In this document: positions 8,657-58,410 of the stretch, one piece after another | Numbering within the stretch: position 1 is the stretch's first letter | How the letters are laid out: each line of letters opens with the position of its first letter | From: Candidatus Methanoperedenaceae archaeon GB37 | Lineage (GTDB): Archaea; Halobacteriota; Methanosarcinia; Methanosarcinales; EX4572-44 | DNA length: 64,000 nucleotides | Assembly: GCA_905171695.1 (NCBI GenBank) | Contig: LR991653.1 | Location: 1,658,150-1,722,149, forward strand | Direction of reading: 5' to 3' | Program-made: the position numbers and the translations under genes | Notes under the pieces: model-generated | The model's database searches: none | What the model saw: the letters and a program-made list of their open reading frames with translations, nothing else | Told to the model about the DNA's origin: nothing

Positions 8657-10699
8657 CTATTTGACCTTCACCCCGTTCTTTACAGGTTCGTCTGGTTCGA
8701 GAAGGACGCCATTCTCGGTTGCAAGTAGCATGCCCTGTGATTCAACGCCGAAGAGCTTTGCAGGCTCCATATTGGCGACGACGAGAACCTGTCTTTCTAA
8801 GAGTTCTTCTGGGGTGTAGTGTTCTCTGATGCCTGCCACGATCACTCGCGGTATTGTCTCGCCAAGATCGACTGTGAGTTTCAAGAGCTTCTCAGAGCCT
8901 TTGATGCTCGTTGCTTCTTTCACAGTACCGATACGTAGATCCAGTCGTTCAAATTCGTCGAGAGTGATGCTATCAGATCTTCCCCTCTCTTCACCATCTT
9001 TCTTGTTCTTCATCTCTTTTTCCACCGCTTCAATGATTCGCTTGCTAAGAATTCTCTCCATCTCCTCGATCTTTTCATCATCGATCTTATTAAATAGGAT
9101 CTCAGGCTTCAGAATCGGTCTTCCACCCTCGAGTTCGACGAGTGCTTCATCGTATGATACGGTATGAACGCTCTCTCTAAGACCGAGATCTCTCCACGCG
9201 ACCTCCATCAACCCTGGCATCACGGGATCGAAGAGTACGATGAGAGCCTTTGCTATCTGGAGACAATCCTTTATAACACCTGCACATGCCTCTCGATTGG
9301 TCTTCACAAGCTTCCACGGCTCCATTGACTGGAAATATGTGTTGCCAAAGTCAGAGAGTGTCATTGCACTATCCACAGCCCGTTTAAACTCATACCCACC
9401 GATACTCTCAGTGAATTCGTCGATCGCCTGACCTATCCGATCCATAACTTCAGAACTCACAGCCGCCATAGGAACCTCTTTAAAGTTCTTGTATGCAAAT
9501 AGCGTGGTGCGGTAGAGAAAATTTCCGAGAGATCCGACAAGTTCCTTGTTTACCTTCTCCTGAAATATCTTCCACGAGAAGTTGAGTTCCTTTGTATGGG
9601 ACGTGTAACTTGCAAGATAATACCGGAGGAGATCAGGGTGAAAACCATGCGCCAGGTAGTCCTCATCGACCCAGACTATATACCCGCGACTCTTCGAGAA
9701 CTTCTTATCCTCAATCTTCACCATCCCGGACGCAACCACAGCCCATGGAACCGTGTAACCGGCACCCTTCAGGATCGCTGGCCAGAAGATGCAATGGTGA
9801 TAGACGATATCAAGCCCGATGAAGTGAATGATCCTCGAGTCACCGCGCCAGATAGCCTCCCAATCACCCCCGGTCCGTTTCGCCCACTCCTCAGTAAAAG
9901 AGATGTACCCGATCGGAGCGTCCACCCAGACATAGACGACAAGCCCCTCGTGCCCGGGAAAAGAGACCCCCCACTCCATATTCCGCGTAATACACCAGTC
10001 ACGAAGCTCCTGATTCACCCACTCAATAGCATAGTTGCGCGCATTACTCGTGCCACGAAGACCTGGGAGATACTGAAGCAGGAAGTCCTTGAACCGAGAA
10101 AGCCTGAAGAAGAAATGCTCCTGAGTACGATACTCAGCCTCACGCCCACATATCTTACAAACAGGATCTCTTATCTCGCCCGGCTCAAGATGCTTACCAC
10201 AGCCCTGATCACACTCATCACCCCTTGCACGAACCCCACAGTAGGGACAGCGACCCTCAACATACCGATCAGGAAGAAAACGATCACAACGAGGGCAGTA
10301 CGCAAGCTCAATTCTCCGAGGATAGACATGCCCAGCCTCGATCAGAGCCTCCACAATCTGAAGAGTCCTGTGATGATTCGATGGAGCGTCAGTCGTCCCA
10401 AAATAATCAAACTCCACACCCATTCGTCTGAATATCTCATCAAAATGGGCATGATACATCTCAACAAGTTCACCCGGCAGAATGCCAAGCTCCTCAGCAT
10501 TCATCACAATGGGCGTGCCGTGAGTATCAGAACCACAGACAAAGACAACCTCCTGACCCTGCTTACGGAGCGTTCGGACAAAGATATCAGCAGGAACATA
10601 AGTCCGAAGATGCCCAATATGACACCGCCCATTGGCATACGGCAGACCACACGTCACAAGAACAGGTTTTTCAACCGGAAAATCAGAGACCAAAGGCAT
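8657..10699 (-). CDS. metG: methionine--tRNA ligase with C-terminal tRNA-binding domain
   Basis: 680 aa. HIGH-type motif (CHIGHL), KFSKS, Zn knuckles CPRC/CPYC, Trbp111/EMAP-like C-terminus. Confidence 0.95.
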
Positions 10700-36090: not shown

Positions 36091-37078
36091 CTACTTTTTT
36101 GCAAGTGTTATCGATTTTGTTATCTTTTTGAAGGTTTTAGTAATAATTTCTTTAAGTTTTTTTATATTCAGTGGTGTTTTCTCTGAAATTGCTCTTTTAG
36201 CACTCTTCTAGACGTTTTCAATCGGATTCGGATCAGGTGAGTGATGGGGGGATAAACCAGTGAAATGTTCGGTTTCTCGGCTTCCTTCCTTATCTTCCTG
36301 GTATGTTGTGTTCTGAGGTTGTTCGGGGTGATTACAATTCTCTTTTTTCAGGTTTTGCTTCCCTTATCTTTCTGGGAAAAGACACGCGGAGTCTTCATCC
36401 TTGTTGCTCTTGGGAGACTCTATTGAGCTTTCTCTGTTCAAGGTGTAGAATCCTGTAACTTTAGCTTTAATATAGGTAGCAACTCTCTTAAGAGGCTTAT
36501 CGAAGCTCCATAATCTTGCTGTGTTTGTGTTCGCTTCAACTGCCATCTTATCGATAAATCCTATTTACGTCATCCTCGATTTCAGCGTCGTCAAGGGTTT
36601 TTAAAGTGTCTTCTGCATTATCTGGCTTTCTGTAATCCTTCTGGTATGGTCTGGCGTATCTCATTCCAAACGATTTTAGAATTCTTCTGACCTGCCATGA
36701 GGAGTAGATAACTCCAAATTCTAATTCTGCTTCAATGAGCTCTTGAACTTCCTTCGTCGTCCAGGAATCCTTCTCCTTGAGCATTTCTCTGAGCTCTTCC
36801 TTCTGCTCTTCTGTAAGTTTAGATGGTCTTCCTCCACCAAAATCCGGAATTAAACCTTCGTAACCATTGGAGTTCCATCTTTTAAGCCATGCGTAGCCGG
36901 TCGCTTTGGTAACTCCTACCAAACCGGCAACTTCCTCAACACTCATTCCTCTGCAAAGGCGTCTTATAAAGTACAGTCTTTGAAAGACTCTTGTGTCTTT
37001 CTCGAGTTTCTTGATCTCTTCATCCAGTTCTTCTACTGGTAGATACTTCACCACCTCGTAAACCCACTTTCTTCCCAC
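36091..37078 (-). pseudogene. IS630-family transposase, disrupted
   Basis: N-terminal HTH part is intact (ORF 36548..37078). Downstream pieces sit in other frames and include SPDPNPIENV (the IS630 DDE-region motif) with a stop where Trp is expected. Confidence 0.75.
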
Positions 37079-37763: not shown

Positions 37764-38327
37764 ATGGTTTTGAAGTGTGTTGCAGTGGTTGTATTTCTGC
37801 TTGTGTCGTGTGGTTGTGTTGGTATGGAGTCGGATCATGCTCGGGATCGGGAAGGTGATATGATGAATGAGATCAGTGTATCTTCAGACGCGTTCGAGGA
37901 TGATGGGATGATACCTGCTGAGTATACCTGTGATGGTGAGAATGTCTCTCCACAGATCTCGTGGACTGGTATTCCCGCTGGTTCGAAGAGCATTGTTCTG
38001 ATCGTGGACGATCCTGACGCCCCGGGGGGTACGTTCACTCATTGGGTGGTCTATAATATACCTCCTGATGTGGTGGAGCTTCCTCGGGGCGTTGAGAGGC
38101 AAGGTGCTCTTCCCAGTGGGTGTGTGCGGGGTGTGACCGATTTTGGATCGATCGGGTATGGGGGTCCATGTCCACCTCCTGGAAAGCCGCATCGGTACCA
38201 CTTCAAGGTCTACGCACTTGATGAGAAGCTATCCCTTGGTGGTGGTAGCACGAAGGATGAGGTGGAGGCTGCTATGGAGGGGCACGTCCTTGCAATGGGC
38301 GAGCTTGTTGGGCGCTATGGGCGATGA
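37764..38327 (+). CDS. PEBP/YbhB-family protein with lipoprotein-like signal
   Basis: 187 aa with DDPDAPGGTFTHWVVYNIP and GYGGPCPPPG..HRYHF. N-terminal hydrophobic segment ends in SCGC. Confidence 0.85.
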   Translation: MVLKCVAVVVFLLVSCGCVGMESDHARDREGDMMNEISVSSDAFEDDGMIPAEYTCDGENVSPQISWTGIPAGSKSIVLIVDDPDAPGGTFTHWVVYNIPPDVVELPRGVERQGALPSGCVRGVTDFGSIGYGGPCPPPGKPHRYHFKVYALDEKLSLGGGSTKDEVEAAMEGHVLAMGELVGRYGR

Positions 38328-38564
38328 AGCATCAATGTCAAAGAAAACCACTATTTTTTCTGATTCGTCAACCTTATAGATTATTCGGTACTTTCCAACT
38401 CTCTTTTTCCAATATTCTTTTAAATCTCCTTTTAGGTTTAGTCCTGAATAAGGTTCGTCTAAAATTTCCTCAATGGCTTTTATGACTCGTTCCTTCATAT
38501 CTATATCGAGTTTCTTCCCTTCTTTAAGAAAAGTTCTCAAAAAACGTGCGCGGTACATCTTCAC
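38229..38564 (-). CDS. RelE/ParE-family toxin with aberrant C-terminus
   Basis: RelE pattern GKYRIIYKVDESEKIVVFFDI. The expected GHR..Y tail is then replaced by read-through antisense to the PEBP gene. Confidence 0.55.
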   Translation of the reverse strand: MKMYRARFLRTFLKEGKKLDIDMKERVIKAIEEILDEPYSGLNLKGDLKEYWKKRVGKYRIIYKVDESEKIVVFFDIDASSPIAPNKLAHCKDVPLHSSLHLILRATTTKG

Positions 38565-38764
38565 CTTAATAACGCTTCTATTTTTTCTGGCTCGGAATCT
38601 ACGTAATCACCGCTTTTTAGCTCTTCCTCTCCCTTCTTTAATCTTTTCAATGTCGCCTCGTCCAAGAGCACTTCCAGTGTTTTAAGAATCTGATCTATCT
38701 TCTCATGCGCTTCATAGATCTCCTCGAGCATCTTTTTTGGTATCTGGATCGTATCCGTCTCCAT
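38561..38764 (-). CDS. putative antitoxin of the adjacent RelE-like gene
   Basis: Small acidic ORF (METDTIQIPKK...) overlapping the toxin start by 4 nt. Confidence 0.4.
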   Translation of the reverse strand: METDTIQIPKKMLEEIYEAHEKIDQILKTLEVLLDEATLKRLKKGEEELKSGDYVDSEPEKIEALLR

Positions 38765-39156
38765 GATAGCAAATATAGATTCAGAGGATATAAAAAGTTT
38801 CGCTATGAAGCGTAAAGCACGCCTCATCCACCCATGTACAACCTTCGATTGGACTTGAGCACCTCAGAGAGGTGCTCCTTTTGCGATTGCCTATCAAAGG
38901 CATCTTCGGTCGAACGGTTCAGCCGAAGGTTCAGCCGAAGGCTGAATAGCCCTATCGGTAGGTGGGCTTTTTGCAGGGTGGGCTTTTGGAAAAGCCTGCA
39001 GGGAGTGGAGTTGTGGCTGGTGGGGTTGGGGTGAAGATGCTTCAGCGGTAGTAGATCTCGCTTCCGCCGTTGGTGTAGATTTTCAGAACGATGAAAAGGA
39101 AGAGGCAAAAAGGTATAAGTAGAGAGGCATCGACTTTAGTTGGTTGTGGTGATAAA

Positions 39157-45959: not shown

Positions 45960-47144
45960 TTACACACTCTTATACAACTCTTCCAGCTTTCGTACATGCT
46001 CGTCCATATCATACTTCTTCACAGATTCAAAAGCACCTTCTTCCAATCTCTTTAACTCTGATGGATGTTCTATCAAGTTCTCAAGTATCCCTTTCAATTC
46101 TTCCACATTTCCAGTTTCGAATAAAAACCCATTGTAGCCTTCCTCAATCAATTCTGGAATACCCCCCATGCTACTCCCTATAACGGGAGTTCCATTCGTC
46201 AAACTTTCATAAATTACCATAGGTGAATTATCATACCAAATGGATGGAACAACTGAGACATTTGCTTTTCGATACAAAGTTATAAGTTCTTCGTCTGGCA
46301 CAAATCCATAAAAATCTATCCTTTGATCAGACGCCGCCATCCTCTTGAATTCGTCCTCATCTCTCCCTTTTCCAATGATGTGAAGTCTAATATTTACAGA
46401 TCCTATTTCTTTGAAAGCACTTATCAATATATGAACGCCTTTATGTCTACTCAAACCACCCACATACAGAACATCGATCATATCATAATCTTTTTCAGCT
46501 TTCTTATCCCACAATTCAATACCCAACGGAAGTTTCATCGTTTTAACACCTTCAAACAGTCCCGTTTCTTTCAATTTACCGATTACAAACTGCGAAGGTG
46601 CAGTAATAACATCCGGTTTGTTATTCACCAGATATTTTTGAATTTTTACATAAACTTTGCACAATCTCGACGGAACGGTACATATCTCACCAGAACCATT
46701 CAACAGATTTGCTCTTGAGCATATCAATGAGTAATCATGTGCCGTGAAGACTAACGGTAGATTCAAACGCTTTGCTGCGCTGAATACAGAGAGTGAGAGC
46801 CCCTTGAAGTTATTAACATGCACAACATCTGGCATCTCCTTCTTCAGAATATTTTTAACAACAACATAAGAATGTGGATTCCATAAATCAATGGTGTGCC
46901 AGATCGGTTTTAGCATTTCTGGCTGGTTCTGATGGTTATACATCGCATAAAGGTTCAATGGGTTGATCCGATAGACCTTTACCCCGTTCACTTCTTCGAT
47001 TGATCCTTTTCCATTCACAGATGTGGTAATAACAAATACTTCATGTCCTCTTTTTACCAGTCCGTCTGCTGCTCTCTTCACGCTAATCTCTGCACCGCCT
47101 ATTACGGATGGCGGATAGAGATTGGATATGAAACAGATTTTCAT
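45960..47144 (-). CDS. glycosyltransferase family 4
   Basis: 394 aa. GT-B fold with N-terminal GGAE and C-terminal E..PMVIYESL..G.PVIGS. Confidence 0.85.
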   Translation of the reverse strand: MKICFISNLYPPSVIGGAEISVKRAADGLVKRGHEVFVITTSVNGKGSIEEVNGVKVYRINPLNLYAMYNHQNQPEMLKPIWHTIDLWNPHSYVVVKNILKKEMPDVVHVNNFKGLSLSVFSAAKRLNLPLVFTAHDYSLICSRANLLNGSGEICTVPSRLCKVYVKIQKYLVNNKPDVITAPSQFVIGKLKETGLFEGVKTMKLPLGIELWDKKAEKDYDMIDVLYVGGLSRHKGVHILISAFKEIGSVNIRLHIIGKGRDEDEFKRMAASDQRIDFYGFVPDEELITLYRKANVSVVPSIWYDNSPMVIYESLTNGTPVIGSSMGGIPELIEEGYNGFLFETGNVEELKGILENLIEHPSELKRLEEGAFESVKKYDMDEHVRKLEELYKSV

Positions 47145-48298
47145 ATCAAATCCTCGTAAACCCTCTCAGTCATCTCAGCAACTCTCTCCCAGGTATATTT
47201 CTCTTCCACAAGCCTTCTCCCATTCGCACCCATCTTCTCTGCTAAATCTTCATCGTTTAATAACTTAATTATCGCACTCGCCAGCGCCTCTGGATTTTTC
47301 GGTGGAACCAACAAACCATTCGCTCCATCTTCTATCACATATTGGATACCCCCCACCTTTGTTCCTATCACTGGTTTTCCGCATGCATTTCCTTCAATCA
47401 GCACCATACCAAAACCTTCTTGAACCGTAGTTGAAGGTAAAACGACCACATCAGAACTCTTGTAGTATTCAATCAATTCAGTTTCATCAACAAAACCGGT
47501 GAATATCACGTTATCAAAAATATTAAACTCTTCACACATTTTCTTATATTCTGAGATCATATCACCTCTGCCCACTAAGACTAGGTATGCACCCTCCACC
47601 TCTTCTAAAACTATTTTGAATGATTTAATTAATTGATCGACCCCTTTATGTGTATGTGCCTTACTCATTACGCCAACAAAAAGAACAATTTTTGAAGAAT
47701 CTGGGATGTCGTATGCCTCATGAATTTTAAATGATTTACCGACACTATATTTTTCAATATCAACTCCGGGTGGAATCCATACGAGTTTATTCGTAAACGG
47801 TTTCAGGAACTTGGATTCATTATAACAAAAAGGAGATGGAGTTATTAGCAGGTTCATTGAGCGCAGAGCCACATGGTTCATCGAATAATTATAAATCTGT
47901 GCTACAGAACTCATTAATAATCCGTCTTTAACGATATCGTTATGATATGTCAAAACAGATGGAATCTTGCATATTTTACTCACTAATGCCGCAATATCGG
48001 GATAATATGGTAAATGGAAATTTATATCTATTAAATCGAAGTCGCCATTCCGCACAAAATTAATCATATCAAAAAGCAGTCCAATTTTTATAGGTGCAGT
48101 AGATATCGTAAAGTCTGGTTTTAGTCTTATTATTCGAATACCATCTATACTTTCCTCCTTTTTTCTCTTTTCTTGACCACTACACAACACTGTGACACTG
48201 TGCCCCCCATCTACAAGCCTTTTCGCAATATTGTAAGCATAGCTTTCAGCTCCGCCACCGTCTGGATAAAAGTATGAAGAAACCATAAAAATATTCAA
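47141..48298 (-). CDS. glycosyltransferase family 4
   Basis: 385 aa. GGGAES N-terminus and EGFGMVLIEGNACGKPVIGT motif. 4-nt overlap with the next GT4. Confidence 0.85.
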   Translation of the reverse strand: MNIFMVSSYFYPDGGGAESYAYNIAKRLVDGGHSVTVLCSGQEKRKKEESIDGIRIIRLKPDFTISTAPIKIGLLFDMINFVRNGDFDLIDINFHLPYYPDIAALVSKICKIPSVLTYHNDIVKDGLLMSSVAQIYNYSMNHVALRSMNLLITPSPFCYNESKFLKPFTNKLVWIPPGVDIEKYSVGKSFKIHEAYDIPDSSKIVLFVGVMSKAHTHKGVDQLIKSFKIVLEEVEGAYLVLVGRGDMISEYKKMCEEFNIFDNVIFTGFVDETELIEYYKSSDVVVLPSTTVQEGFGMVLIEGNACGKPVIGTKVGGIQYVIEDGANGLLVPPKNPEALASAIIKLLNDEDLAEKMGANGRRLVEEKYTWERVAEMTERVYEDLI

Positions 48299-49270: not shown

Positions 49271-49564
49271 TCAATCACCAGTCGCCCTATATATTCTCCT
49301 CTCGCTCTCTTCCTTTGATCCCCTGACCTCTATTCTGAAGCCCCTGCTCCGGAGTATCTCCTTAAATTCTTCCACAGTCGTCCCAGCCATATCCGCTGCT
49401 TTCCAGAGGCTCACCTCTTTGTTTCTGTAAAGCTCTACAGCCATCTCTACCTTTAACCCGGGCTTCAAATTTAAAAGTGCCCTGTATGCATCTTCAATGA
49501 GATTATCCACACTTCCGCAATATTTCGGCACCAGAGCCTTTGGAAGGTTCTCTGCTAAATACAT
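49271..49564 (-). CDS. UPF0175-family antitoxin
   Basis: 97 aa. Paralogue of 52140..52427 (LIEDAYRALLNLKPGLKVEMAVELY). Confidence 0.7.
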   Translation of the reverse strand: MYLAENLPKALVPKYCGSVDNLIEDAYRALLNLKPGLKVEMAVELYRNKEVSLWKAADMAGTTVEEFKEILRSRGFRIEVRGSKEESERRIYRATGD

Positions 49565-49584
49565 ATTTGTATGTTATACCTCCC

Positions 49585-49712
49585 CACCCTATAAACTGTT
49601 GCTCGCTTCTTGCACATCTCAATAACATCCGCTCCAAACACCACACCCACCTCATCTCACCGACCCCACACCTCCTCAGCACCACCTCGCAGCAAGTGGA
49701 ACATATCTCGGA
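49585..49712 (-). pseudogene. degenerate 3'-end fragment D of the B12-radical-SAM gene
   Basis: Retains CCTCGCAGCAAGTGGAACATATCTC versus CCTCACAGCAAGTGGAACATATCCC in the intact gene (52580-52604). The reading frame is destroyed. Confidence 0.35.
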
Positions 49713-49842
49713 GATAGATATAGATAATAAACAACTGTTGGGATTGGCCCCTTTCCTGCCAGCGCTTTTTCTCCGGGCGTTCCGTAGTCGTCGAATATAT
49801 GCAGTATCTTCATTTTTTCTTCCCCTGATAAACCTCTAGAAA

Positions 49843-50243
49843 CTACTCTATTTTTCCGATAAATGCATAAAAATCTGGTAAATTCTCTTTCAGTATTTCA
49901 AAAGCGATCCTGTCATCTATCCTGCCATATCTGTGAACGACTATGTTTTTAAATCCTTTCATCGCCTTCAATTTCTCTCTCATCTCTTCGCTCAATATCT
50001 TCTTCTTTACCGATTTTCTATAATATCTTTATCATCATGTGGGATTCCGAGTTCAAGGTCTGTGTTGATGATGGCGCAGATGTCAAGGACATTTTCTATG
50101 GCAAACTCTATCCTTTTGTAGATTCCATCTTTTATCAATCCAAGATCTGAGAATTCCTCAAATGTATCTGGTAAATGCTCTTCTACCAATCTGATACTCT
50201 CCTCTATCTACTTCATCTTTGTTCTGATAATCTTTTTTCTCAT
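49843..50243 (-). pseudogene. HEPN (DUF86) toxin, disrupted
   Basis: ATG overlaps the MNT stop (ATGA). There is an in-frame TAG after 11 codons and a frameshift before KGFKNIVVHRYG (the Rx4-6H-like HEPN motif). Confidence 0.65.
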
Positions 50244-50653
50244 GTAATCTCTCTTTCTCCGATATAATCATAAAATTTGTGTTTAAATGCTTCAAAATCT
50301 TTTATTGTCTCGATAGCCGCTTCGTATAAAAACTGCTTATCTTTGCAGTAGATAATTTTTCCCTTCAAAACTTCCACTCGTACATAAATGGGGAGTTGCT
50401 GAAAGATTTGAACGTCAAAAGTATCATCAAAGAGCTCTGAAAGAACTTTGAACCTGAATTTTGATGATTCATCTGGGCTGCCATCATGGTATATACAGAG
50501 GTCTATGTCTGAACCCCCGGTCATCTGCCCCTCTGCTGCTGATCCATAGAGAATGATGAATTTTACCTTTTCAAATCCCTCTACATTCTTAATTTTCTCA
50601 ATTGTCTTCTCTATTTTTGTCTTCGTTATCGTGGTCCCTGCATCCATCTCTTT
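50240..50653 (-). CDS. MNT-type nucleotidyltransferase antitoxin
   Basis: ILYGSAAEGQMTGGSDIDL nucleotidyltransferase motif. ATG at 50653 within tracked ORF 50240..50668. Confidence 0.8.
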   Translation of the reverse strand, partial: KEMDAGTTITKTKIEKTIEKIKNVEGFEKVKFIILYGSAAEGQMTGGSDIDLCIYHDGSPDESSKFRFKVLSELFDDTFDVQIFQQLPIYVRVEVLKGKIIYCKDKQFLYEAAIETIKDFEAFKHKFYDYIGEREIT

Positions 50654-50664
50654 CATCGCCCCTC

Positions 50665-50817
50665 TCACCTATTTGCAATATATCCCATAAACACCCTCGT
50701 CGACTTAATCATCCCCTTCAACTCATGTAACCCCCTCCCTAGAATATCCCTCATCGCTACCGGTATATATGAAGGACTCAAATGATATTCTTTCAACCTC
50801 CGATCCACATAATTCAT
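50665..50817 (-). pseudogene. 3'-end fragment C of a B12-radical-SAM paralogue
   Basis: YIPVAMRDILGRGLHELKGMIKSTRVFMGYIANR aligns with the C-terminus YVPLAVRQVLRRHSLDEMKRLWHSARMFMGYIGGRGE of 52487..53947. Confidence 0.5.
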
Positions 50818-50821
50818 CCAA

Positions 50822-51124
50822 TTACTCCTTTCGTTCTTCTTCAAATGAGAAGAGCATGAGTTTATATATCTCCTCTCTGTGTCCAAAAGCAACCAGTATC
50901 ACCTCGCTTTCGTTCTCATCCACCATATAAATAAGTCTATATTTCCCCTTTATTCTGAGAGATCTGTAATGAGAGAGTCGGTATTTCAGCGGTTTTCCGG
51001 AATACGGTACATCCTGTAGTTTCTTCACTTTCTTCGCTAACTCTTCCATCAATGCTTTGTCTTTCTTCTTCACCCTCTCAATCTGTTTCTTGAAGATTCT
51101 GGTGTACTTCAGACCGTATACCAC
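50822..51124 (-). CDS. RelE/ParE-family toxin
   Basis: 100 aa with GKPLKYRLSHYRSLRIKGKYRLIYMVDENESEVILVAFGHREEIY. Confidence 0.75.
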   Translation of the reverse strand: MVYGLKYTRIFKKQIERVKKKDKALMEELAKKVKKLQDVPYSGKPLKYRLSHYRSLRIKGKYRLIYMVDENESEVILVAFGHREEIYKLMLFSFEEERKE

Positions 51125-51128
51125 AAGA

Positions 51129-51353
51129 TCACTCCAGAAACAAATTATTTAAATCCTCTTCCGATTTGATTACGAAAGTATTCCCTTCTCTAATATCTTT
51201 CTCACTTTCCTTTATCTGTTCCATCAAATCCTTATCGCTTAAGATCTCTATGGTCTCCATCAAAGATTCCATTTCCCCAATCAGGCTTTCAAAGTCCTCT
51301 TTGCGTAGCACTATGTTTCCCTTGACTTCTTTTATTCTCACAACACTTACCAT
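51129..51353 (-). CDS. putative antitoxin of the adjacent RelE/ParE gene
   Basis: 74 aa and acidic, 4 nt upstream of the toxin. Paralogue of 56384..56605 (EILSDKDLMEQIKESEKDIREG). Confidence 0.5.
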   Translation of the reverse strand: MVSVVRIKEVKGNIVLRKEDFESLIGEMESLMETIEILSDKDLMEQIKESEKDIREGNTFVIKSEEDLNNLFLE

Positions 51354-51419
51354 TGTATCACCTCTACTTTATGGAAGATTGAATGGATACTATGTCTTGC
51401 TGTACATATCATAAAGTTG

Positions 51420-51668
51420 TCACCCCCTCCGCCTCATATACCCCATGAACATCCTCGCCGAATGCCATAGCCTCTTCATCTCGTCCAGGCTATGCCGCCT
51501 CAAAACCTGCCTCACAGCAAGTGGAACATATCCCAGGGACATACAACACCCCTCAAGCACCCAACCAGCCAGTTCAGTCATCTCTTCAACCGTTAGCCGC
51601 GAATAAGAGGTTACAGCCTTCTGATGCACCTGTTCAACCATTGGTTGAATGCTTTCTGACAGATACAT
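51420..51668 (-). pseudogene. 3'-end fragment B of the B12-radical-SAM gene
   Basis: The last 82 codons of a paralogue. 51436-51535 is 100/100 identical to 52506-52605 of the intact gene. Confidence 0.85.
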
Positions 51669-52139
51669 TTACAGTTCCACCCTCGATAATAAGCGGTTAT
51701 CCGCGGTTTCAATATCCTTTATAATCTTCAAAACTTCTTCTTTTGTTGCAATGTTTTTTACTATTAGTCCTTTAAAAATAACTCCTGCTGTGATGATATT
51801 CACTCCAAGCTCCTTTGCTGTTGAGATGGCTCTTTTATCAAAAGACGAGAATGAATGCTCTCTTCTCAAACAAACAACGATGCTTTCTGTCTCGCCCTTT
51901 TCAATTTCAGCGTGTTCACCTCTGAGTTTCAAATATTCTCTTTGCTCGTCATCTGAAACAGTCACCAGTTCTGTCTTTTCAAAGATCTCCCTGGGGTATT
52001 CGTGGCCGTGTTCTAAAGGAGTTAAGAGTTCTTCGTAAACTCTTGGAGTTATCCCGACCACCCCAAAAAGCTTTATCAACATGTCAAAGTGACCTGCCTT
52101 GGCGAATGCACTGGCAATATCGGTATCAATTATGATCAT
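51669..52139 (-). CDS. PIN-like (DUF3368) toxin
   Basis: 156 aa with N-terminal IIIDTD acidic motif. Immediately follows the UPF0175 gene. Confidence 0.75.
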   Translation of the reverse strand: MIIIDTDIASAFAKAGHFDMLIKLFGVVGITPRVYEELLTPLEHGHEYPREIFEKTELVTVSDDEQREYLKLRGEHAEIEKGETESIVVCLRREHSFSSFDKRAISTAKELGVNIITAGVIFKGLIVKNIATKEEVLKIIKDIETADNRLLSRVEL

Positions 52140-52427
52140 TCAAATCAGGCTCAATCCCCTCTCAATTTCATCTTTTGAGCCTATATAACTGCTCACTTTC
52201 AATCCTCTCGCTTTCAAGATCTCCTTAAAGCTTTCCAGATCCATGCCTGAAATCTCCGCCGCTCTCAAAAGTGATACTTCCTCTCGCAGATAAAGCTCCA
52301 TCGCCATTTCCACCTTCAACTCAGGTTTCAAATTCAAAAGTGCTCTAAATGCATCCTCAATGAGACTGTTCACATTTTTGTAACATCTTGGCACCAAAAC
52401 TTTTGAGAGGTTCTCTGTCGGATACAT
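52140..52427 (-). CDS. UPF0175-family antitoxin
   Basis: 95 aa. Paralogue of 49271..49564. Confidence 0.75.
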   Translation of the reverse strand: MYPTENLSKVLVPRCYKNVNSLIEDAFRALLNLKPELKVEMAMELYLREEVSLLRAAEISGMDLESFKEILKARGLKVSSYIGSKDEIERGLSLI

Positions 52428-52486
52428 ATTCTATTTTCTCCTTTATTATCCTATAAATATATTCACTAATTTGTTATGAAATATTT

Positions 52487-53947
52487 TCATTCCCCTCTCC
52501 CTCCTATATACCCCATGAACATCCTCGCCGAATGCCATAGCCTCTTCATCTCGTCCAGGCTATGCCGCCTCAAAACCTGCCTCACAGCAAGTGGAACATA
52601 TCCCAATGACATATAATAATCCTTCAACATCTTATCCACCTCTTTCACCATCTCCTCTGAAGACAGGTTCGGATAAGAGATAATCGCCTTCTGATGCCCC
52701 TCTTCATCTAAATACTCATTCGGGTCGTCCGTGAGCAAATACCCATTTTCTCTGCACCATTCGTAAAGTTCTGTTCCGGGAAATGGAGACGAAACAGAAA
52801 CTTGGACCTGCTCAGGCTTTATCTCTTTTATAAATCTCCTCGTCTTCTCTATCGTCTCCTTAGTCTCCCCAGGCAAGCCTATTATAAAATCCGCATGTAA
52901 CAGCAGTCCGGCTTTTTTGACATTTCTTGCAAATTCCTCTGTCTGCCCGGTTGTAAAACCCTTCTTTATCTTTTTAAGTATTTCGTCGTCTCCCGATTCA
53001 AAACCGACAATCAGAAATCGACAGTTTGCCCGTCTCATCTCCTCCATCGTTTCAAGATCGAGAGTATCTGCCCTCGCATTGCACGACCAGGTTATCTCCA
53101 AACCTGTCTCTCTATAACCCTTGCAAAACTCAAGAACCCTTCTCTTATCTATCGTGAGGGTATCATCCTCAAAGAAGACCTCTTTCACCTCTGGCAGATT
53201 CGCCTCGATCCATTCAAGCTCATTCAGGATGTTTTCAACTCTCCTGACCCTGTACTTTCGTCCCATGAAGGACTGGGGCCACGAGCAAAAGGTGCATCTG
53301 TGAGGACATCCTCTTCCTGTAAAGACCTGGACCATTGGATAGAGCGAATAGTTAAGGAAATAATCGCGAATATTCAGGTGCCTTTTGTACACCTCAGACA
53401 CAAACGGCAGTCCGTCCAGTTCACCTGACGTAGACCATGGTCTGTTTGGATTGTGAATAACCTTGCCATTCTGTTTGAATGATATTCCGGAAATATCACC
53501 AATGCGTCCATTCCTTTCCATTCTCTCTGCCAGTTCAGCCAGAGTAAAATCATATTCATATCTCGCAACTATGTCCACGCCACCGTCCAGCATTTTTTCC
53601 GGGAATTGGGATGTTGGCGGACCCACCATAATAACCGGCACATCAGCATCAAGTTCGTTTTTTATTTTTTTGGACACGTCCAGATCGTTGTTCACACTTG
53701 TGAAACTTGTTCCAACAACCACCATATCCGGACTAAATTTTCTTAAATCCTCCATGACTTTCTCGATGCCCCAATCCCATGCAGGTGCATCGACAAGCCT
53801 GACATCATGCCCCTTATTTTCAAGTACCCCTGTAGCATAAGATAACCAGATTGGGTAGTAGAGTGTGCCGCCTCTTCCCGTATCCTGCCATCTCATCTCC
53901 CTGCCAAAGTGAGGAAAGTACGGCGGGTTTAAGAGGTAAATTCTCAT
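52487..53947 (-). CDS. B12-binding-domain radical SAM enzyme (class B)
   Basis: 486 aa. N-terminal cobalamin-binding-like domain, GRGCPHRCTFCSWP (CX3CX2C). Confidence 0.85.
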   Translation of the reverse strand: MRIYLLNPPYFPHFGREMRWQDTGRGGTLYYPIWLSYATGVLENKGHDVRLVDAPAWDWGIEKVMEDLRKFSPDMVVVGTSFTSVNNDLDVSKKIKNELDADVPVIMVGPPTSQFPEKMLDGGVDIVARYEYDFTLAELAERMERNGRIGDISGISFKQNGKVIHNPNRPWSTSGELDGLPFVSEVYKRHLNIRDYFLNYSLYPMVQVFTGRGCPHRCTFCSWPQSFMGRKYRVRRVENILNELEWIEANLPEVKEVFFEDDTLTIDKRRVLEFCKGYRETGLEITWSCNARADTLDLETMEEMRRANCRFLIVGFESGDDEILKKIKKGFTTGQTEEFARNVKKAGLLLHADFIIGLPGETKETIEKTRRFIKEIKPEQVQVSVSSPFPGTELYEWCRENGYLLTDDPNEYLDEEGHQKAIISYPNLSSEEMVKEVDKMLKDYYMSLGYVPLAVRQVLRRHSLDEMKRLWHSARMFMGYIGGRGE

Positions 53948-54924
53948 ACGTTAACCTCCTTCACGGGCTTAAACACTCCCCTTATAAAACCGAGCCCCCA
54001 TCCCCAGAACCAGATTGCGATGAGTGCGTAGTATCTCAAAAAATCTCTCATGCCCGTTTTAGAGCCAAGATACAAACTCATTGCGCCGATCCCTATTCCG
54101 CCAATGATCAATATCGAGAGTGCCCCCCATAGGTACACCATATTCGATAGTGAGAGGATGGATAAAAAAAATATTGCGGATATGATCAGAGACGGCGTGT
54201 AATGAAACCATCTCCCCATATCTCTATGCAGCTTTATTGCCTGCATCCGCCCAATTCCATAATTCCATGCCATCTTCATGAATCTTCCCCAGGTTGGTCT
54301 CCTGTAGTGATAAACAACAGCATCCGGCGTATATAAAATTCTGTATCCATTTTCTCTTATCCGATAGTCCAGTTCCTCATCATCTACGGTAACAAGGCTG
54401 TGATTGAATCCTCCTACCTCCTCCAATACGCTTTTTCTATACATCACATTACAGGTAGGGTTATGGTATATCTCTCTGACTTCTTCCTCACAAAATCCAT
54501 ACCTTGCCCCGGGTTTGCTCAAAAAAGATAATATCACACCCACGCATTTTGCGAATGCGCTGTCATCTTCAGGTGTTATATTCGGACCACCCACTGCTGC
54601 AACATCATCCTTGAAATGCTTTATAAGCTCTTTAATCCAGCCTCTATCAACCACGCAGTCAGCGTCCGTAAACGCTATAAATTTGCCTTTTGCCTGCCTC
54701 ACACCAATCTCTCTTGCATAGCTTATTGTTCCTTTATCTTCAAAGATTACTTTACATCCATATTTTTCAGCAATCCCCACCGTATCATCCGCAGAATGTC
54801 CATCCACAATTATCACTTCCAGCCTATCTTCTGGACATTCCAGATTCTGAATAGAAAATAGACATTTTTCGAGTATACCACCGTTGTTTTTTGTTGGGAT
54901 AACAATGGAAATAATATCGTTCAT
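53944..54924 (-). CDS. glycosyltransferase family 2 with C-terminal membrane segments
   Basis: MNDIISIVIPTKNN...IIVDGHSADDT...FTDADC. ATG at 54924 preferred within tracked ORF 53944..54945. Confidence 0.85.
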   Translation of the reverse strand: MNDIISIVIPTKNNGGILEKCLFSIQNLECPEDRLEVIIVDGHSADDTVGIAEKYGCKVIFEDKGTISYAREIGVRQAKGKFIAFTDADCVVDRGWIKELIKHFKDDVAAVGGPNITPEDDSAFAKCVGVILSFLSKPGARYGFCEEEVREIYHNPTCNVMYRKSVLEEVGGFNHSLVTVDDEELDYRIRENGYRILYTPDAVVYHYRRPTWGRFMKMAWNYGIGRMQAIKLHRDMGRWFHYTPSLIISAIFFLSILSLSNMVYLWGALSILIIGGIGIGAMSLYLGSKTGMRDFLRYYALIAIWFWGWGLGFIRGVFKPVKEVNV

Positions 54925-54925
54925 G

Positions 54926-55078
54926 TCACCTATCTCTCTCACCATCCCACCATTTCAACCCGTACCAGTGAACCTCGTGCCCCCGTTCAGCGAGTCGCTT
55001 CGAGATCTCATAGATTCGCTTCTCTGCACCGCTTTTTATCCATGGATAGACGGCATCGTAGATGTATGCGAGTTTCAT
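54926..55078 (-). pseudogene. GT4 glycosyltransferase 5'-end fragment 1 (50 codons)
   Basis: [50 protein letters not shown] then stop. 132/139 nt identical to fragment 2 by manual alignment. Confidence 0.7.
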
Positions 55079-55092
55079 CTTTTGCTCAACTC

Positions 55093-55364
55093 TTATTGTT
55101 TATATGCTTCATCATGGTGTGCAAACTCCAGAAGGATCACCCTGTGCTCTTCTTCATCTATTCTGTAAAATTAAGCACAAAATGCCCGATATGAACCCTC
55201 CTTTTACCTTTAAGCAATCCACGAAGAGGTTTGCCGAGGTACGGATTCTCTGCGATTTGAGCCATTTTCTTCTGCACTGCTGCGTACAACTTTTTGTTTC
55301 TTTTTGCCAATCTCTTTAACCTGGAAACCAGCTCTTCGTCAATATCCTGGCTGTAACTATTCAT
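55093..55364 (-). pseudogene. RelE/ParE-family toxin with frameshift
   Basis: ORF 55158..55364 ends ...VHIGHFVLNFTE. The conserved tail [24 protein letters not shown] continues in the +1 frame to 55093. Confidence 0.65.
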
Positions 55365-55620
55365 CTTTCAAGCTCTCTAAAAACTCATTTAGCTCCTTTG
55401 CATCTTTGAAAGACCTGGTTTTCCCTTCTTTCACTCTTTTCTCCGCCTCTTTCACACGTTCTATAAATTCATCCGTGAACATCTCTTCCGGCGGGTAGAA
55501 CTGTTCTTCAAGCGTATCTATGATACCCCTCACTATTTTGTATCTTATCCTTTCCTCTATTATCGGAGCAAGCTTATCCACAAGTTCTTCTTCATCAATC
55601 CCGCCCATCTTTTTCACCAT
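55357..55620 (-). CDS. putative antitoxin of the frameshifted RelE gene
   Basis: 87 aa and acidic. Overlaps the toxin start by 8 nt. Confidence 0.4.
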   Translation of the reverse strand: MVKKMGGIDEEELVDKLAPIIEERIRYKIVRGIIDTLEEQFYPPEEMFTDEFIERVKEAEKRVKEGKTRSFKDAKELNEFLESLKDE

Positions 55621-55643
55621 TACTAAGCTTTACTTTTTTCATC

Positions 55644-55979
55644 TTATAAATCTTCATGCATCCATGCAGAAAAACATGAAAACTCCTGAGAATCTATGAT
55701 ATCAAAATCCCCCCTGAGTCCAGTCAGCGTCTTGAATCCGAAATACAAACCTTCTCCTATAGATCTTTTCCCATCAACATAGAGATTATTCCACTTTCCA
55801 ATTCCGTGAAGATGAACACCATCCATCATGATGTCTCGTTCACCATCCCACCACTTCAACCCGTACCAGTGAGCCTCGTGCCCCCGTTCAGCGAGTCGCT
55901 TCGAGATCTCATAAATTCGCTTCTCTGCACCTCCTTTTATCCATGGGTAGATGGCATCGTAGATGTATGCGAGTTTCAT
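55644..55979 (-). pseudogene. GT4 glycosyltransferase 5'-end fragment 2 (111 codons)
   Basis: [54 protein letters not shown]... This is a GT4 N-terminal domain only. Confidence 0.8.
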
Positions 55980-56131
55980 GTTATCTTATCTTTTCTATCT
56001 CACTATATTTTTTAAGTGATTCCTCATTTTATTCCACCCTGACATGCTCAAATATAAATCCATCAACACCATCTATTGCCACTATAACCACTCCTTCTCC
56101 CTCATTCAGATCACCCACTTACCATCGCACA

Positions 56132-56380
56132 TCACCTGTAAACGTCGTTCCTGTACTCAAATGCATACGCCCTTATCACATCCCCATCGATCGCATAGAG
56201 ACGTCTGTACTTTCCGATTCTTATCGATCTGAATCCCTTGAGCGAGTATCTGAGTGGTTTTCCAGTGTCCGGATCTTTCAACAGATTTTTAAGCTCTTTT
56301 CTAACTCTGTCTAGCACAGTTTCATCCTTTATTTTCTTTATCTGATTTTTAAACTTCTCAGAGAGTTCTATTTGAGGCAT
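56132..56380 (-). CDS. RelE/ParE-family toxin
   Basis: 82 aa with GKPLRYSLKGFRSIRIGKYRRLYAIDGDVIRAYAFEYRNDVY. Confidence 0.75.
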   Translation of the reverse strand: MPQIELSEKFKNQIKKIKDETVLDRVRKELKNLLKDPDTGKPLRYSLKGFRSIRIGKYRRLYAIDGDVIRAYAFEYRNDVYR

Positions 56381-56383
56381 GAT

Positions 56384-56605
56384 TCATTCTTTCTCTAAAT
56401 CATTGAAGAAATCATCGATATCCTTCTCTGTTTTGAGTGTGTAATACCTCCCCTCTTTAAAATCTCTCGCACTCTCTTCTATATCTCTTATGAGGTCTTC
56501 GTCACTCAGGATCTCGAGCTCCTCCACCAGGTCTCCGATCTCCTCCTGGATCTGTGTGAGTCTTGTTATTATGCCTCTTGCAATCGGGGATTCAACCATC
56601 TGCAT
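56384..56605 (-). CDS. putative antitoxin of the adjacent RelE/ParE gene
   Basis: 73 aa and acidic, 3 nt upstream of the toxin. Paralogue of 51129..51353. Confidence 0.5.
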   Translation of the reverse strand: MQMVESPIARGIITRLTQIQEEIGDLVEELEILSDEDLIRDIEESARDFKEGRYYTLKTEKDIDDFFNDLEKE

Positions 56606-56705
56606 CTTCTTGACCTCCTCACTTTCTTTATCTTTATTTAAGTATTAAAAGATTGCCTTGAGATTTTACAAAATCTTCTTGATCTTCTTTATATCGGCAA
56701 CCAGC

Positions 56706-56879
56706 TCAACTCTCTCCTTTTTCCATCTCCTCTGCTATGGATATTATTTCCTCAAGTTCTCCATCACTCACTTCTTCCTCTGGGATAAGCGCATACCCTA
56801 TCACAGATACTTCCTTTCTCAACTCCTTTAGCTCCTCATAGACCTTTTCCATGGACACACCCATATAATAATCACTCAT
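56706..56879 (-). CDS. small acidic ORF (57 aa), orphan antitoxin-like
   Basis: Not in the track because it is under 60 aa. MSDYYMGVSMEKVYEELKELRKEVSVIGYALIPEEEVSDGELEEII..., with no partner toxin. Confidence 0.2.
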   Translation of the reverse strand: MSDYYMGVSMEKVYEELKELRKEVSVIGYALIPEEEVSDGELEEIISIAEEMEKGES

Positions 56880-56933
56880 TTTATATTTTTACTTCAATCA
56901 TGTATTAATAATTGCGTCTTATCGACCTCCTCT

Positions 56934-57005
56934 CATCAACATAGAGATCGTCCCATTCTCCGATCCCCCGCACAATATCCCGTTCACCATCCCACCACTT
57001 CGACC
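56934..57005 (-). pseudogene. GT4 glycosyltransferase internal fragment 3
   Basis: CATCAACATAGAGAT...GTTCACCATCCCACCACTTCGACC is collinear with 55782-55863 of fragment 2 and has an internal deletion. The 5' end is missing. Confidence 0.4.
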
Positions 57006-57081
57006 TGCTTTCGGTGGCGATAGATCTCTTCCAGACCTTTGATCTGGATTTGAGTAAGCAACGAGAGAGAGTTTGTGCAGC

Positions 57082-58182
57082 TTATTCTCCTGTTATAATA
57101 GCGAGGAAGAAGGAGTAGAATATGGTTTGAATTCCGATGAGTGCTGCTGTAAGTGCGACGATCGTTGTAAGAGAACTTCCTCCATACCATGGTATCTGAC
57201 CATCAAGGATCTCTATGATTGGCATGGTCCCGAGTGTGAGGAAGCCTGTGCCGGCAGCAGCAGATCTCTTGGGGTTGATGATCTTGAGCACGCGCTCTGT
57301 TATCCTGTTAATCTCGTGGTCTCTCTGCTGTGCGGCGTGAATATCTGCAAATATGCCGAGGGCAAAGAGCTGGTATCCAACGATTGTGAGGAGGCTTCCT
57401 GTGATGAATGTGAGGGTATTCTCTGGTGATCCTGTGAGCCAGGTTAAGAGCATGACGCTCAAGCCTGATAGGAAGAGGGTGATGCCCGGCAGGGTGAAGA
57501 GGTACTCTGGACTTGAGATCAGCATGAACTTGAGGTGTCTCCATCCATCACTGAAGGAAGAGAGGTTTGATTCTCCTCTCCGTGGATGATACGTAATCGG
57601 CACCTCTCGTATCCGCAGATCCTTTCTCACAGCTTCCACTATCATCTCTGAGGCAAACTCCATTCCCACTGTTCGTAGATTCATCTTCTCAAGTGCATCC
57701 TTTCGGAGTGCTCTGAATCCACTATGAGAGTCTGAAACTCCTGCTCTATAGAGGCAGTTCAGGACAAACGTGAGAAACGGATTTCCGATGTACCTGTGGA
57801 GCCAGGGCATTGCACCTTTTTTAATGGTTCCTTTGAGTCTGCTTCCCATGACCATGTCGGCTTCTCCCTTTCTCAAAGGCTCAAGCAACCTTGGTATGTC
57901 GTAGAAGTCATAGGTGTTATCGGCGTCACCGATGATTATGTAGTCACCGCTTGCGTGTTTAAATCCGTAACGATAGGCGTAACCATAACCTACTTTATCC
58001 GGGGTTACGACCTTTGCTCCGTATGATCTTGCAATCACAGGTGTTTGATCGGTTGAGCTGTCAGAGACAATGATCTCTCCATCGATCTTGTTCTCTTTGA
58101 ATACGTTTTGGATTTTTTCAAGGCATATTCCTATGGTTTTTTCTTCGTTTTTTGTTGGTATTATAACTGAGATTTCAGTCAT
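57082..58182 (-). CDS. GT2 dolichyl-phosphate hexose synthase-like glycosyltransferase with C-terminal TM domain
   Basis: 366 aa with ISVIIPTKNEEKTI...IIVSDSSTD...IIGDADNTYD and four C-terminal hydrophobic segments. Confidence 0.85.
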   Translation of the reverse strand: MTEISVIIPTKNEEKTIGICLEKIQNVFKENKIDGEIIVSDSSTDQTPVIARSYGAKVVTPDKVGYGYAYRYGFKHASGDYIIIGDADNTYDFYDIPRLLEPLRKGEADMVMGSRLKGTIKKGAMPWLHRYIGNPFLTFVLNCLYRAGVSDSHSGFRALRKDALEKMNLRTVGMEFASEMIVEAVRKDLRIREVPITYHPRRGESNLSSFSDGWRHLKFMLISSPEYLFTLPGITLFLSGLSVMLLTWLTGSPENTLTFITGSLLTIVGYQLFALGIFADIHAAQQRDHEINRITERVLKIINPKRSAAAGTGFLTLGTMPIIEILDGQIPWYGGSSLTTIVALTAALIGIQTIFYSFFLAIITGE

Positions 58183-58410
58183 ATTGTTTCACACCTCTTA
58201 TTTCCTCTCTGAGATCATTAAGTGGTGCACCTCAAATAGATTTTCGGATGTGGATTTTATAGACTCGGTTTCTTATTTAATCCTTTCCACTTTCCACAGT
58301 TTTTTATGATGATTGTGATAATGATGACTGTGTTCTGTGGGTGGGGATGCGTGATCGAAGTGGTATACTCGAGGATAAAGATTAAGTCCTTAACCTGTGA
58401 GAAGAGTGTG

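Follow-up and report, generated by a model that had tools for sequence, protein, structure and literature searches.

Glycosyltransferase gene stubs and toxin-antitoxin cassettes at the edge of an archaeal glycan island: a probable record of one-sided recombination

In Candidatus Methanoperedenaceae archaeon GB37 (assembly GCA_905171695.1, contig LR991653.1), three pieces of a GT4 glycosyltransferase gene alternate with small toxin-antitoxin (TA) cassettes between two GT2 glycosyltransferase genes. The array lies on the minus strand of a stretch of 64,000 nucleotides (nt), positions 1,658,150 to 1,722,149 of the contig, which is called the window below and whose numbering is used throughout. 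How would ends of a biosynthetic gene come to be interspersed with addiction modules, and would a dedicated recombination system be needed to bring this about? The original prediction was that glycan genes had been replaced repeatedly by recombination, with TA cassettes sitting at the junctions. Comparison with related loci supports the replacement, because stubs of the same gene precede different gene sets in relatives. The cassettes do lie at the seams, but they are better described as reshuffled cargo than just as passengers. The array is probably a stack of recombination scars together with selfish cargo, which would have been formed by one-sided homologous plus illegitimate recombination and by later reshuffling through a repeated block, with no dedicated recombinase involved.

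Stubs of a displaced glycosyltransferase gene

The features of the array, as borne out by open reading frames (ORFs), Pfam matches and repeats, are given here in the 5' to 3' order of the minus strand, with the basis of each assignment in brackets. GT4x denotes the parent gene of the three fragments, GT2TM and GT2b the two flanking GT2 genes, and numbers with a leading L the loci on other contigs that were used for comparison. The coordinates and strand of the features named in the original prediction were found as given there.

57082 to 58182, minus: GT2TM, a GT2 glycosyltransferase with a C-terminal membrane domain (PF00535; orthologues carry PF26629, GT2_TM_C)
57006 to 57081, minus: degenerate 76-nt spacer, the native place of GT4x codons 1 to 41 (alignment)
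about 57005 to 56917, minus: fragment 3, GT4x residues ~42 to 75, in frame (repeat families D5 and D7; alignment)
56706 to 56879, minus: orphan acidic antitoxin-type ORF, 57 amino acids (aa) (orthologues in L091 and L001)
56384 to 56605, minus: cassette 1 antitoxin, 73 aa (position; resemblance to antitoxins of L098 and L167)
56132 to 56380, minus: cassette 1 RelE/ParE toxin, 82 aa, apparently intact (PF05016, E = 4e-10, 40.5 bits)
55980 to 56131, minus: 152-nt spacer, a decayed remnant of an earlier cassette (comparison of upstream flanks; ORFs of L167)
55644 to 55979, minus: fragment 2, GT4x codons 1 to 111 (PF13439 match; mosaic relative to L098)
55834 to 55982, minus: copy 2 of the recombining 5' block of ~149 nt (direct repeat)
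55621 to 55643, minus: joint of fragment 2 and cassette 2, AT-rich and promoter-like, GATTTATAAGATGAAAAAAGTAAA (related joints in relatives)
55357 to 55620, minus: cassette 2 antitoxin, DUF2683 family, 87 aa (PF10884)
55093 to 55364, minus: cassette 2 RelE/ParE toxin, frameshifted (PF05016 in its front part, ORF 55158 to 55364)
54926 to 55078, minus: fragment 1, GT4x codons 1 to 49 plus stop, 50 codons (PF13439 match; repeat)
54933 to 55081, minus: copy 1 of the recombining 5' block of ~149 nt (direct repeat)
53944 to 54924, minus: GT2b, a GT2 glycosyltransferase and first gene of the GT2b/radical-SAM module after the stubs (PF00535)
52487 to 53947, minus: B12-binding radical SAM gene (PF04055 and PF02310)

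The intact parent lies outside the window, as had been proposed: no 3' part of GT4x is present there, and the complete GT4 genes at 45960 to 48298 are 25-29% identical to the parent. Full-length relatives of 366-381 aa were found by an exhaustive HMMER search and by scans of genome and metagenome contigs, the nearest of them sharing 77-78% identity with fragment 2 over 108 aa. Alignment to these relatives places the fragments at GT4x residues ~42 to 75, 1 to 111 and 1 to 49, and no parent was found whose duplication would explain them without cassettes. That no full-length parent exists at all had been suggested by a word-indexed protein search, which returned only proteins of 61-193 aa; HMMER and the genome scan exposed this as a search artefact. 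With full length defined as a frame open over at least 340 codons, GT4x is complete in 133 fetched loci, in 49 of which a GT2TM orthologue ends at a median of 50 nt upstream. Since the two genes are directly paired in genomes labelled Methanobacterium, Methanothrix, ANME-1 and Archaeoglobus, GT4x is taken to be the conserved downstream partner of GT2TM. The closest full-length copies (contigs of L009-L012, L014 and L089) carry bacterial labels, among them Dehalococcoidia single-cell genomes, Clostridiales, Eubacteriales and Endomicrobia, which would reflect either mis-binning or contamination or a cross-domain transfer of the glycan gene pair.

A functional GT4 enzyme needs both Rossmann-like domains (PF13439 and PF00534, ~370 aa). 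The fragments comprise at most 111 residues of the N-terminal one, and fragments 1 and 2 score 26.1 and 24.4 bits against PF13439, below its cut-off of 28.5; they are therefore regarded as relics which would not function as glycosyltransferases. An exact database look-up of the 111-aa fragment 2 returned no record. Many database entries for a "hypothetical GT4" of 60-190 aa are stubs of the same kind.

Fragments 1 and 2 share a direct repeat of 149 nt (54933 to 55081 and 55834 to 55982, offset 901) with 93% identity, within which the seven mismatches in 139 nt that had been reported before were recovered. This similarity lies far beyond chance. The stop codon of fragment 1 stands one base ahead of the GT2b start at 54924 (TGAcATG), and this ATG is favoured over the one upstream at 54945 because GT2b homologues begin with MD or MS followed by IIIPTKN. 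That the fragments are decaying, as was first thought, applies fully to fragment 3, which has lost its start codon and six internal codons. It is only partly true of fragments 1 and 2, whose first ~140 nt come from a nearly identical, recombined pool shared across strains, fragment 2 being a mosaic in addition. Decay after displacement is seen in the G16S exchange of fragment 1, at a glycine that is invariant in the family, and in its counterpart in L092, where seven amino-acid changes result from nine substitutions.

At the protein level, stubs are as conserved as full-length genes, the ratio of nonsynonymous to synonymous substitution (dN/dS) being ~0.05 with saturated synonymous divergence (dS). 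An ancient pseudogene kept under selection, which this ratio could suggest, was rejected: stubs are equally near to full-length genes and to each other, and the 115-aa stub of L089 and the full-length gene of L009 are nearly identical alleles, with a dS of 0 and abrupt divergence past codon 115. Because of this identity and of the abrupt split, the truncation is understood as a strain-level polymorphism and not as an old relic.

The order of the pieces does not depend on a doubtful assembly. Collapse or chimerism of a repeat would be a natural suspicion for a metagenome-derived genome with a 149-nt repeat in the window, and the original prediction had named it as the error to be excluded, but it is exceedingly improbable here. 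In runs X1 and X2 of the source sample, the region from 53.8 to 58.4 kb is tiled by unitigs with zero mismatches at an even depth of 26-32. Those at 53872-55002, 55049-55903 and 55972-58400 span every junction of fragment and cassette, and the tiling is interrupted only at the repeat. Ten differences separate the two block copies, each of which is represented by its own unitig. In addition, L092, a contig from a different project, matches the window from 55958 to 54947 with 95.3% identity over 1012 nt and has the same order of fragment 2, cassette 2 and fragment 1.

A shared 5' block with changing partners

The 5' block is a recombining unit. Over its nt 22 to 132, copies from the window, L092, L098, L167 and L101 show 2-17 differences in 111 positions, or 2-10 when the decayed copy L092_f1 is left out; across strains the copies are 91-98% identical (85% for the decayed L092 copy), and they group neither by array position nor by genome. 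All four gametes were found at 13 of the 36 informative site pairs in a four-gamete test, and the block of L101 changes type near nt 66. Fragment 2 combines the shared block, from nt 1 to ~140, with a remainder from a divergent allele, as is seen against L098: dS amounts to 0.12 over codons 1-45 and reaches saturation over codons 46-105.

Exchange of partners at the block is directly visible in metagenomes. In runs X3 and X5, read depth over the block is 5-20 times that of the flanking sequence, 6-11 contigs coincide at a single site, and the sequences past the ATG (position 55078) vary between contigs. One joint of block and PIN cassette recurs in identical form with different cassettes ahead of it, namely cassette 2 in L092, another RelE cassette in L167, and a cassette termed ParE88 in a minor strain within the source sample itself (depth ~2.5 versus 26-32). 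In runs X3 and X4, the block continues into GT2b, into PIN or into a sequence of the fragment 3 type, the latter being joined to an intact 5' block, and it is preceded by three different sequences. The repeat thus behaves as a displaced gene end does, in that exchange takes place through a stretch matching part of a conserved gene.

At least nine other contig families (L001/2, L091, L092, L098, L102, L106, L167, L172 and L174) contain two or more 5' copies of GT4x, in most of them with TA-type cassettes between the copies. The cassettes are of the ParE/RelE, DUF2683, PIN, HicBA, UPF0175, MNT and retropepsin types. Layouts of such arrays are as follows.

L001/2: GT2TM, stub, UPF0175, 77-aa gene with retropepsin-like gene, stub, acidic antitoxin, GT2b
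L091: GT2TM, stub remnant, DUF2683 with truncated toxin, stub, acidic antitoxin, GT2b, radical SAM
L098: stub, ParE pair, stub, further small cassettes
L106: GT2TM, stub, HicB-HicA fusion, stub piece, DUF2683, GT2b
L167: stub, RelE pair, stub, PIN pair, stub
L174: GT2TM, then four GT4x 5' copies, three GT2b 5' stubs and four small cassettes (three with a ParE-type toxin, one with an MNT nucleotidyltransferase), then the downstream GT4 genes

What follows a stub differs between genomes. A GT4x stub is followed by GT2b and radical SAM in the window, L003, L005 and L091, by a sulfotransferase, a GT4 and a sulfatase gene in L090, and by a GT2 gene and epimerases in L089, while a DUF2206 gene lies downstream in many loci. 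The GT2b orthologues of L001, L003, L005 and L091 are 59-77% identical, and GT2b can itself be reduced to a 5' stub ahead of GT4x (L101, L102, L110 and L174). Related genomes accordingly show conserved flanks with differing gene sets between them, as is typical of replacement islands. The comparison of the island across strains that had been recommended with the original prediction therefore shows arrays that recur, with cassettes next to different partners.

Two of the listed arrays hold further details. The HicBA product of L106 (5383-5695) is a single 103-aa ORF that joins residues 7-61 of HicB to residues 59-92, the C-terminal half, of HicA; it was apparently made by deletion, would be disabled as a toxin, and takes the place at the joint that cassette 2 has in the window. 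On the 3' side of a GT4x copy in L098 (1270-2750), a small ORF paired with a zinc-ribbon (MqsA/YgiT-like) gene, a 5' stub similar to UDP-GlcNAc 2-epimerase and a DUF2283-like gene were recognized by eye, which suggests that 5' stubs of other sugar genes likewise lie beside cassettes.

Cassettes, joints and a possible route of formation

The cassettes are predicted to be type II TA modules of the RelE/ParE superfamily, in which the toxin would arrest growth and the antitoxin would neutralize it. With a PF05016 cut-off of 23 bits, the toxin at 56132-56380 scores 40.5, the frameshifted toxin 27.6 in its front part, and the intact L092 orthologue of the frameshifted toxin 50.2, so the RelE-type assignment proposed earlier holds. 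An antitoxin gene is placed directly upstream in either cassette, with a gap of 3 nt (56384/56380) in cassette 1 and an overlap of 8 nt (55357-55364) in cassette 2. The frameshift in cassette 2 is due to two extra bases near 55170 relative to L092 and to contigs from X3 and X5, all of which encode an intact 89-aa PF05016 protein. The antitoxins of the two cassettes are unrelated. That of cassette 1 has no Pfam match and resembles in sequence style the antitoxins of the L098 and L167 cassettes, while the DUF2683 antitoxin of cassette 2 is widespread in contigs labelled ANME-1 and Methanosarcinales, where it is typically followed by a ParE-type toxin gene and the 5' end of a GT2 gene. Since the cassettes inside one array are divergent, they would have been acquired independently.

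The small acidic ORF, described as an orphan in the original prediction, is a stand-alone antitoxin-type gene according to its orthologues in L091 (65 aa, 82% identical) and L001 (58 aa, 92% over 26 residues, with a short toxin remnant), each of which directly follows a GT4x fragment. It has no Pfam match, its partner toxin is missing at the window locus, and its start is likely the ATG at 56852. Its joint with fragment 3 is of identical type and orthologous to the joint of stub and antitoxin in L091. The 152-nt spacer ahead of fragment 2 is what remains of an earlier neighbour cassette, because the last 22 nt before fragment 2 are identical to the 3' end of the 76-aa partner gene of the PIN cassette in L167.

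In every array seen, all cassettes are co-oriented with the operon and have AT-rich, TATA-like upstream motifs of their own. No viral contig was found to encode the block or the DUF2683 antitoxin, so a search for a viral or plasmid vector gave no candidate, and among RNA-seq runs none was found that holds the array sequence. Read depth rises up to 320x, against ~16-30x in the flanks, at 55340-55493 in X3 (end of the DUF2683 antitoxin and start of its toxin) and at 56418-56571 and 56880-57033 in X5 (antitoxin 1 and fragment 3); these cassette parts therefore would sit in many other contexts in the same communities. A further ParE/RelE pair is present at the far edge of the island (38229-38827). 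No gene-end repeats flank this pair, so not every TA locus of the genome follows the pattern.

The joints between stubs and their neighbours have common properties. Homology between copies starts at the ATG. Microhomologies are seen at the joint of fragment 1 and GT2b (GACAT/ATGA), at a deletion in L091 leading from codon 36 of the RelE2 toxin to the GT4x ATG, and at the joint of stub and antitoxin in L001 (CATGGAA). A joint related to GATTTATAAGATGAAAAAAGTAAA follows GT4x codon ~109-111 in L092, in L106 (before a different cassette) and in a remnant of L091. Joints of the ATTTAT type are found in L102, L091 and fragment 3, and in the window, L092, L106 and L091 such joints shorten stubs into the common AT-rich, promoter-like sequence after codon ~110. 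A conserved cassette-end motif acting as recombination site was considered for this sequence, but a single ancestral joint after codon ~110, altered by deletions of the ATTTAT type, explains it better. Block 3' ends lie at nt 135, 141, 142 and ~148, whereas stub lengths elsewhere range from 18 to 174 codons.

A marked polarity is evident throughout. Twenty-one truncated GT4x copies begin at codon 1-3, all seven GT2b stubs are 5' ends, and secondary copies within loci have the same bias; in all fetched flanks a single orphan 3' piece of GT4x was found, downstream of an intact copy. Radical-SAM pieces, in turn, are all 3' ends and lie downstream of that gene. In the mirror array of the window (49271-52706), to which the GT4 array had been likened before, the radical-SAM 3' end at 52493-52706 is repeated at 51423-51636 with 80% identity over 214 nt, and a third piece of 36 nt is found at 49685-49720. 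Between these copies lie small cassettes, namely UPF0175 with a 156-aa gene, a 74-aa gene with ParE, a 75-aa gene with an MNT nucleotidyltransferase, and a second UPF0175. In L116, the MNT gene, a radical-SAM 3' piece, UPF0175 and a PIN-like gene are kept adjacent and are followed by a GT4x stub.

From these data, the following route can be proposed. The ancestral state, which is found in relatives, is GT2TM followed by full-length GT4x within ~50 nt. DNA from a related strain with a different first gene would enter and pair only in the GT2TM flank, while its other end would be joined illegitimately, often at a microhomology of a few bases, just upstream of the start codon of the resident first gene. 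Each event would leave a 5' stub of either the donor or the displaced gene ahead of an intact gene start. Such one-sided joining would account for homology that begins at the ATG and for stubs that are 5' ends. That joints are found at the ATG would follow from the short native spacer of ~50 nt and from the need to keep the resident gene intact. The 5' polarity is thus most simply explained by one-sided anchoring on the conserved upstream GT2 gene, and anchoring in the downstream flank would leave the 3' stubs of the radical-SAM gene by a mirror process. Subsequently, homologous recombination or gene conversion among the ~135-150 nt GT4x copies, within and between strains, would homogenize the block, create mosaics such as fragment 2 and reshuffle the intervening cargo; the patterns of this step are seen in the alignments, its enzymology being conjectural. 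Finally, small microhomology deletions trim stubs and inactivate toxins, as is observed with the deletion in L091; in the window, the toxin is inactivated by the frameshift. TA cassettes would likely accumulate because seams tolerate insertions and addiction modules resist loss.

Several observations weigh against this route. Four independent joints of stub and cassette (those at nt 135, 141, 142 and ~148) cluster at TGGTGGGATGGTG, and the 5' edge of fragment 3 (nt ~124) falls in the same zone of ~25 nt (nt 124-150). Random illegitimate joining does not predict such a cluster, which could reflect a site preference, a hotspot or a nuclease. Strict stacking with the newest scar next to the anchor is contradicted by fragment 3, the most degraded copy, which adjoins GT2TM. 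The loci were ascertained through the GT4x 5' end, by which both the 5' bias and the cluster of stubs at ~110 codons are inflated, and the latter was discounted for this reason, the query having been 111 aa long. The comparison contigs are mostly short metagenome pieces of uncertain strain relationship, and the mechanism is deduced from end products, with no circle, heteroduplex or fresh event having been observed. To our knowledge, one-sided homology-facilitated recombination has been demonstrated in naturally transformable bacteria and not in this archaeal group.

The cluster at TGGTGGGATGGTG (nt 135-150) would be at home in a site-specific cassette system of the integron or integrative-element kind, in which the ~140-nt block would serve as attachment site for a recombinase or nuclease encoded elsewhere. 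Co-orientation of all cassettes with the operon, block homology from the ATG onward and the AT-rich 5' motif common to unrelated cassettes would agree with such a system, the last of these being better explained by deletions from one ancestral joint. Yet no integrase or transposase adjoins any array, the neighbours being GT2, Obg-like GTPase, radical SAM, GT4, methyltransferase and other genes, and no IntI/attI-type integrase was matched in Pfam scans of the ORFs between 36.5 and 60.8 kb and of some others farther upstream. An RNA element or attC-like structure was rejected: a scan of 54800-57200 for inverted repeats (14 nt or longer, within 200 nt) gave none, and Rfam had no match from 48 to 58.5 kb. 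The wide range of stub lengths, exchange points scattered through the block (as seen in the four-gamete test and in the L101 breakpoint), and the use of GT2b 5' ends and radical-SAM 3' ends as linkers of the same kind speak against one attachment site, and a site-specific system is considered unlikely. A purely local history is regarded as improbable, too. According to it, the 5' segment of GT4x would have been duplicated in tandem, as the close similarity of the direct repeats 901 bp apart could imply, and TA cassettes would have been inserted independently later on, without exchange between genomes. Fragment 2, though, extends 62 codons past fragment 1 and is highly diverged there from the allele that shares its block. 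The unrelated antitoxins of cassettes 1 and 2, the recurrence of identical joints with other partners in other populations, and block copies that follow neither genome nor position leave local duplication only as a contributor to some steps.

It is also conceivable, albeit quite unlikely, that stubs were retained because they are useful, either as small proteins or as upstream ORFs that hand ribosomes to the next gene, for which the transition from fragment 1 to GT2b with its single intervening base would be the model case. Start codons and open frames are preserved in fragments 1 and 2, and dN/dS is ~0.05 between stubs of different lineages. The same low ratio, however, is obtained for stub versus full-length gene, which fits a recent origin from functional genes, as does the dS of 0 in the pair from L089 and L009. 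The loss of the invariant glycine in fragment 1, the predominance of amino-acid changes in its L092 counterpart, the missing start codon of fragment 3 and the differing distance to the next gene among relatives are further arguments against a function. Beyond the scars and cargo of the preferred route, we tentatively consider that gene-end handles might be a general, recombinase-free way of spreading TA cassettes in these archaea, though we do not regard it as the likelier outcome. A cassette beside a copy of the ~140-nt block would be copied by homologous recombination of the host, resulting in integron-like arrays with gene fragments as linkers, and the breakpoint cluster might then mark a preferred site of initiation or cleavage.

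Known systems and the setting of the locus

No description of such an arrangement was found in the literature searched. The locus lacks what defines integrons, integrase-mediated islands or polymorphic-toxin arrays. In outline it resembles the replacement-type glycan islands of marine bacteria and haloarchaea (compare PMC4781885), with which it shares conserved flanks, strain-specific exchanged content and low G+C, but instead of clean double crossovers in the flanks it has stacked gene-end stubs and seams filled with TA genes. In the displacement of Rhs C-termini and in orphan cdiA-CT/cdiI modules of contact-dependent inhibition systems (PMC3482391), a piece of a conserved gene likewise precedes each variable module, modules are swapped by homologous recombination through that piece, and older copies decay. 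At the present locus the polarity is reversed, the repeat being the 5' end of a biosynthetic gene (a 3' end in the mirror array). Nothing suggests an altered product of the conserved gene; in place of an in-frame toxin tip with an immunity gene, there are autonomous operons of antitoxin followed by toxin with starts of their own.

Vibrio superintegrons and the integrons reported from archaeal metagenome-assembled genomes resemble the array in their co-oriented small cassettes, many of them type II TA modules, and in their repeated linker. TA modules are thought to stabilize integron arrays. The likeness is superficial, since IntI and attC are lacking here and the linker is a protein-coding fragment of variable length with scattered exchange points. 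Integrative elements with att sites in tRNA or protein genes, whose insertion duplicates the end of the target, also place gene-end direct repeats around inserts and form tandem arrays by successive insertions, whereas the units of 0.5-0.9 kb found here encode only TA proteins and no recombinase of their own, have variable 3' ends in place of fixed identical ones, and make use of three different gene ends. Homology-facilitated illegitimate recombination combines a homologous anchor on one side with a microhomology joint on the other; foreign DNA is thereby added beside the anchor, and scars of the observed polarity are predicted. At this locus it is deduced from products, and a second layer of recombination between scars is added.

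How chromosomal TA modules spread without mobility genes is a long-standing loose end, and the locus with its relatives would record one possible route. For the surface-glycan islands of uncultured alkane- or methane-oxidizing or related archaea, which are likely virus targets, the data point to diversification by one-sided, scar-leaving recombination rather than by clean replacement. In practical terms, stubs are annotation traps that appear as short GT4 proteins, and they fragment short-read assemblies at these islands.

The array stands at the upstream edge of the island, a hypervariable surface-glycan locus of an uncultured archaeon from marine or hydrothermal sediment; in a metagenome search, the array sequence was present in marine-sediment and hydrothermal metagenomes. 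Surrounding genes encode a flippase, a pyruvyl transferase with an FrhB-like partner, a DUF2206 membrane protein, two GT4 enzymes and a methyltransferase. G+C is 30-39% over the glycan genes (40-52 kb of the window) and 45-52% in the flanks, and between 46 and 58 kb the GC skew is strongly negative; low G+C and negative skew fit a horizontally exchanged island transcribed from the minus strand. The only transposase-like piece of the window, a fragment of an IS630/IS481-type transposase limited to its helix-turn-helix part, is located 18 kb away at 36548-37078. In L001, GC-rich palindromes of ~85 nt resembling miniature inverted-repeat transposable elements occur in or beside GT4x stubs (8425-8510 and 10031-10115), and both stubs contain past codon 37 a 45-nt in-frame insert with a hairpin (8672-8716 and 10194-10238), which is also present in the database proteins P0028, P0036, P0040 and P0044.

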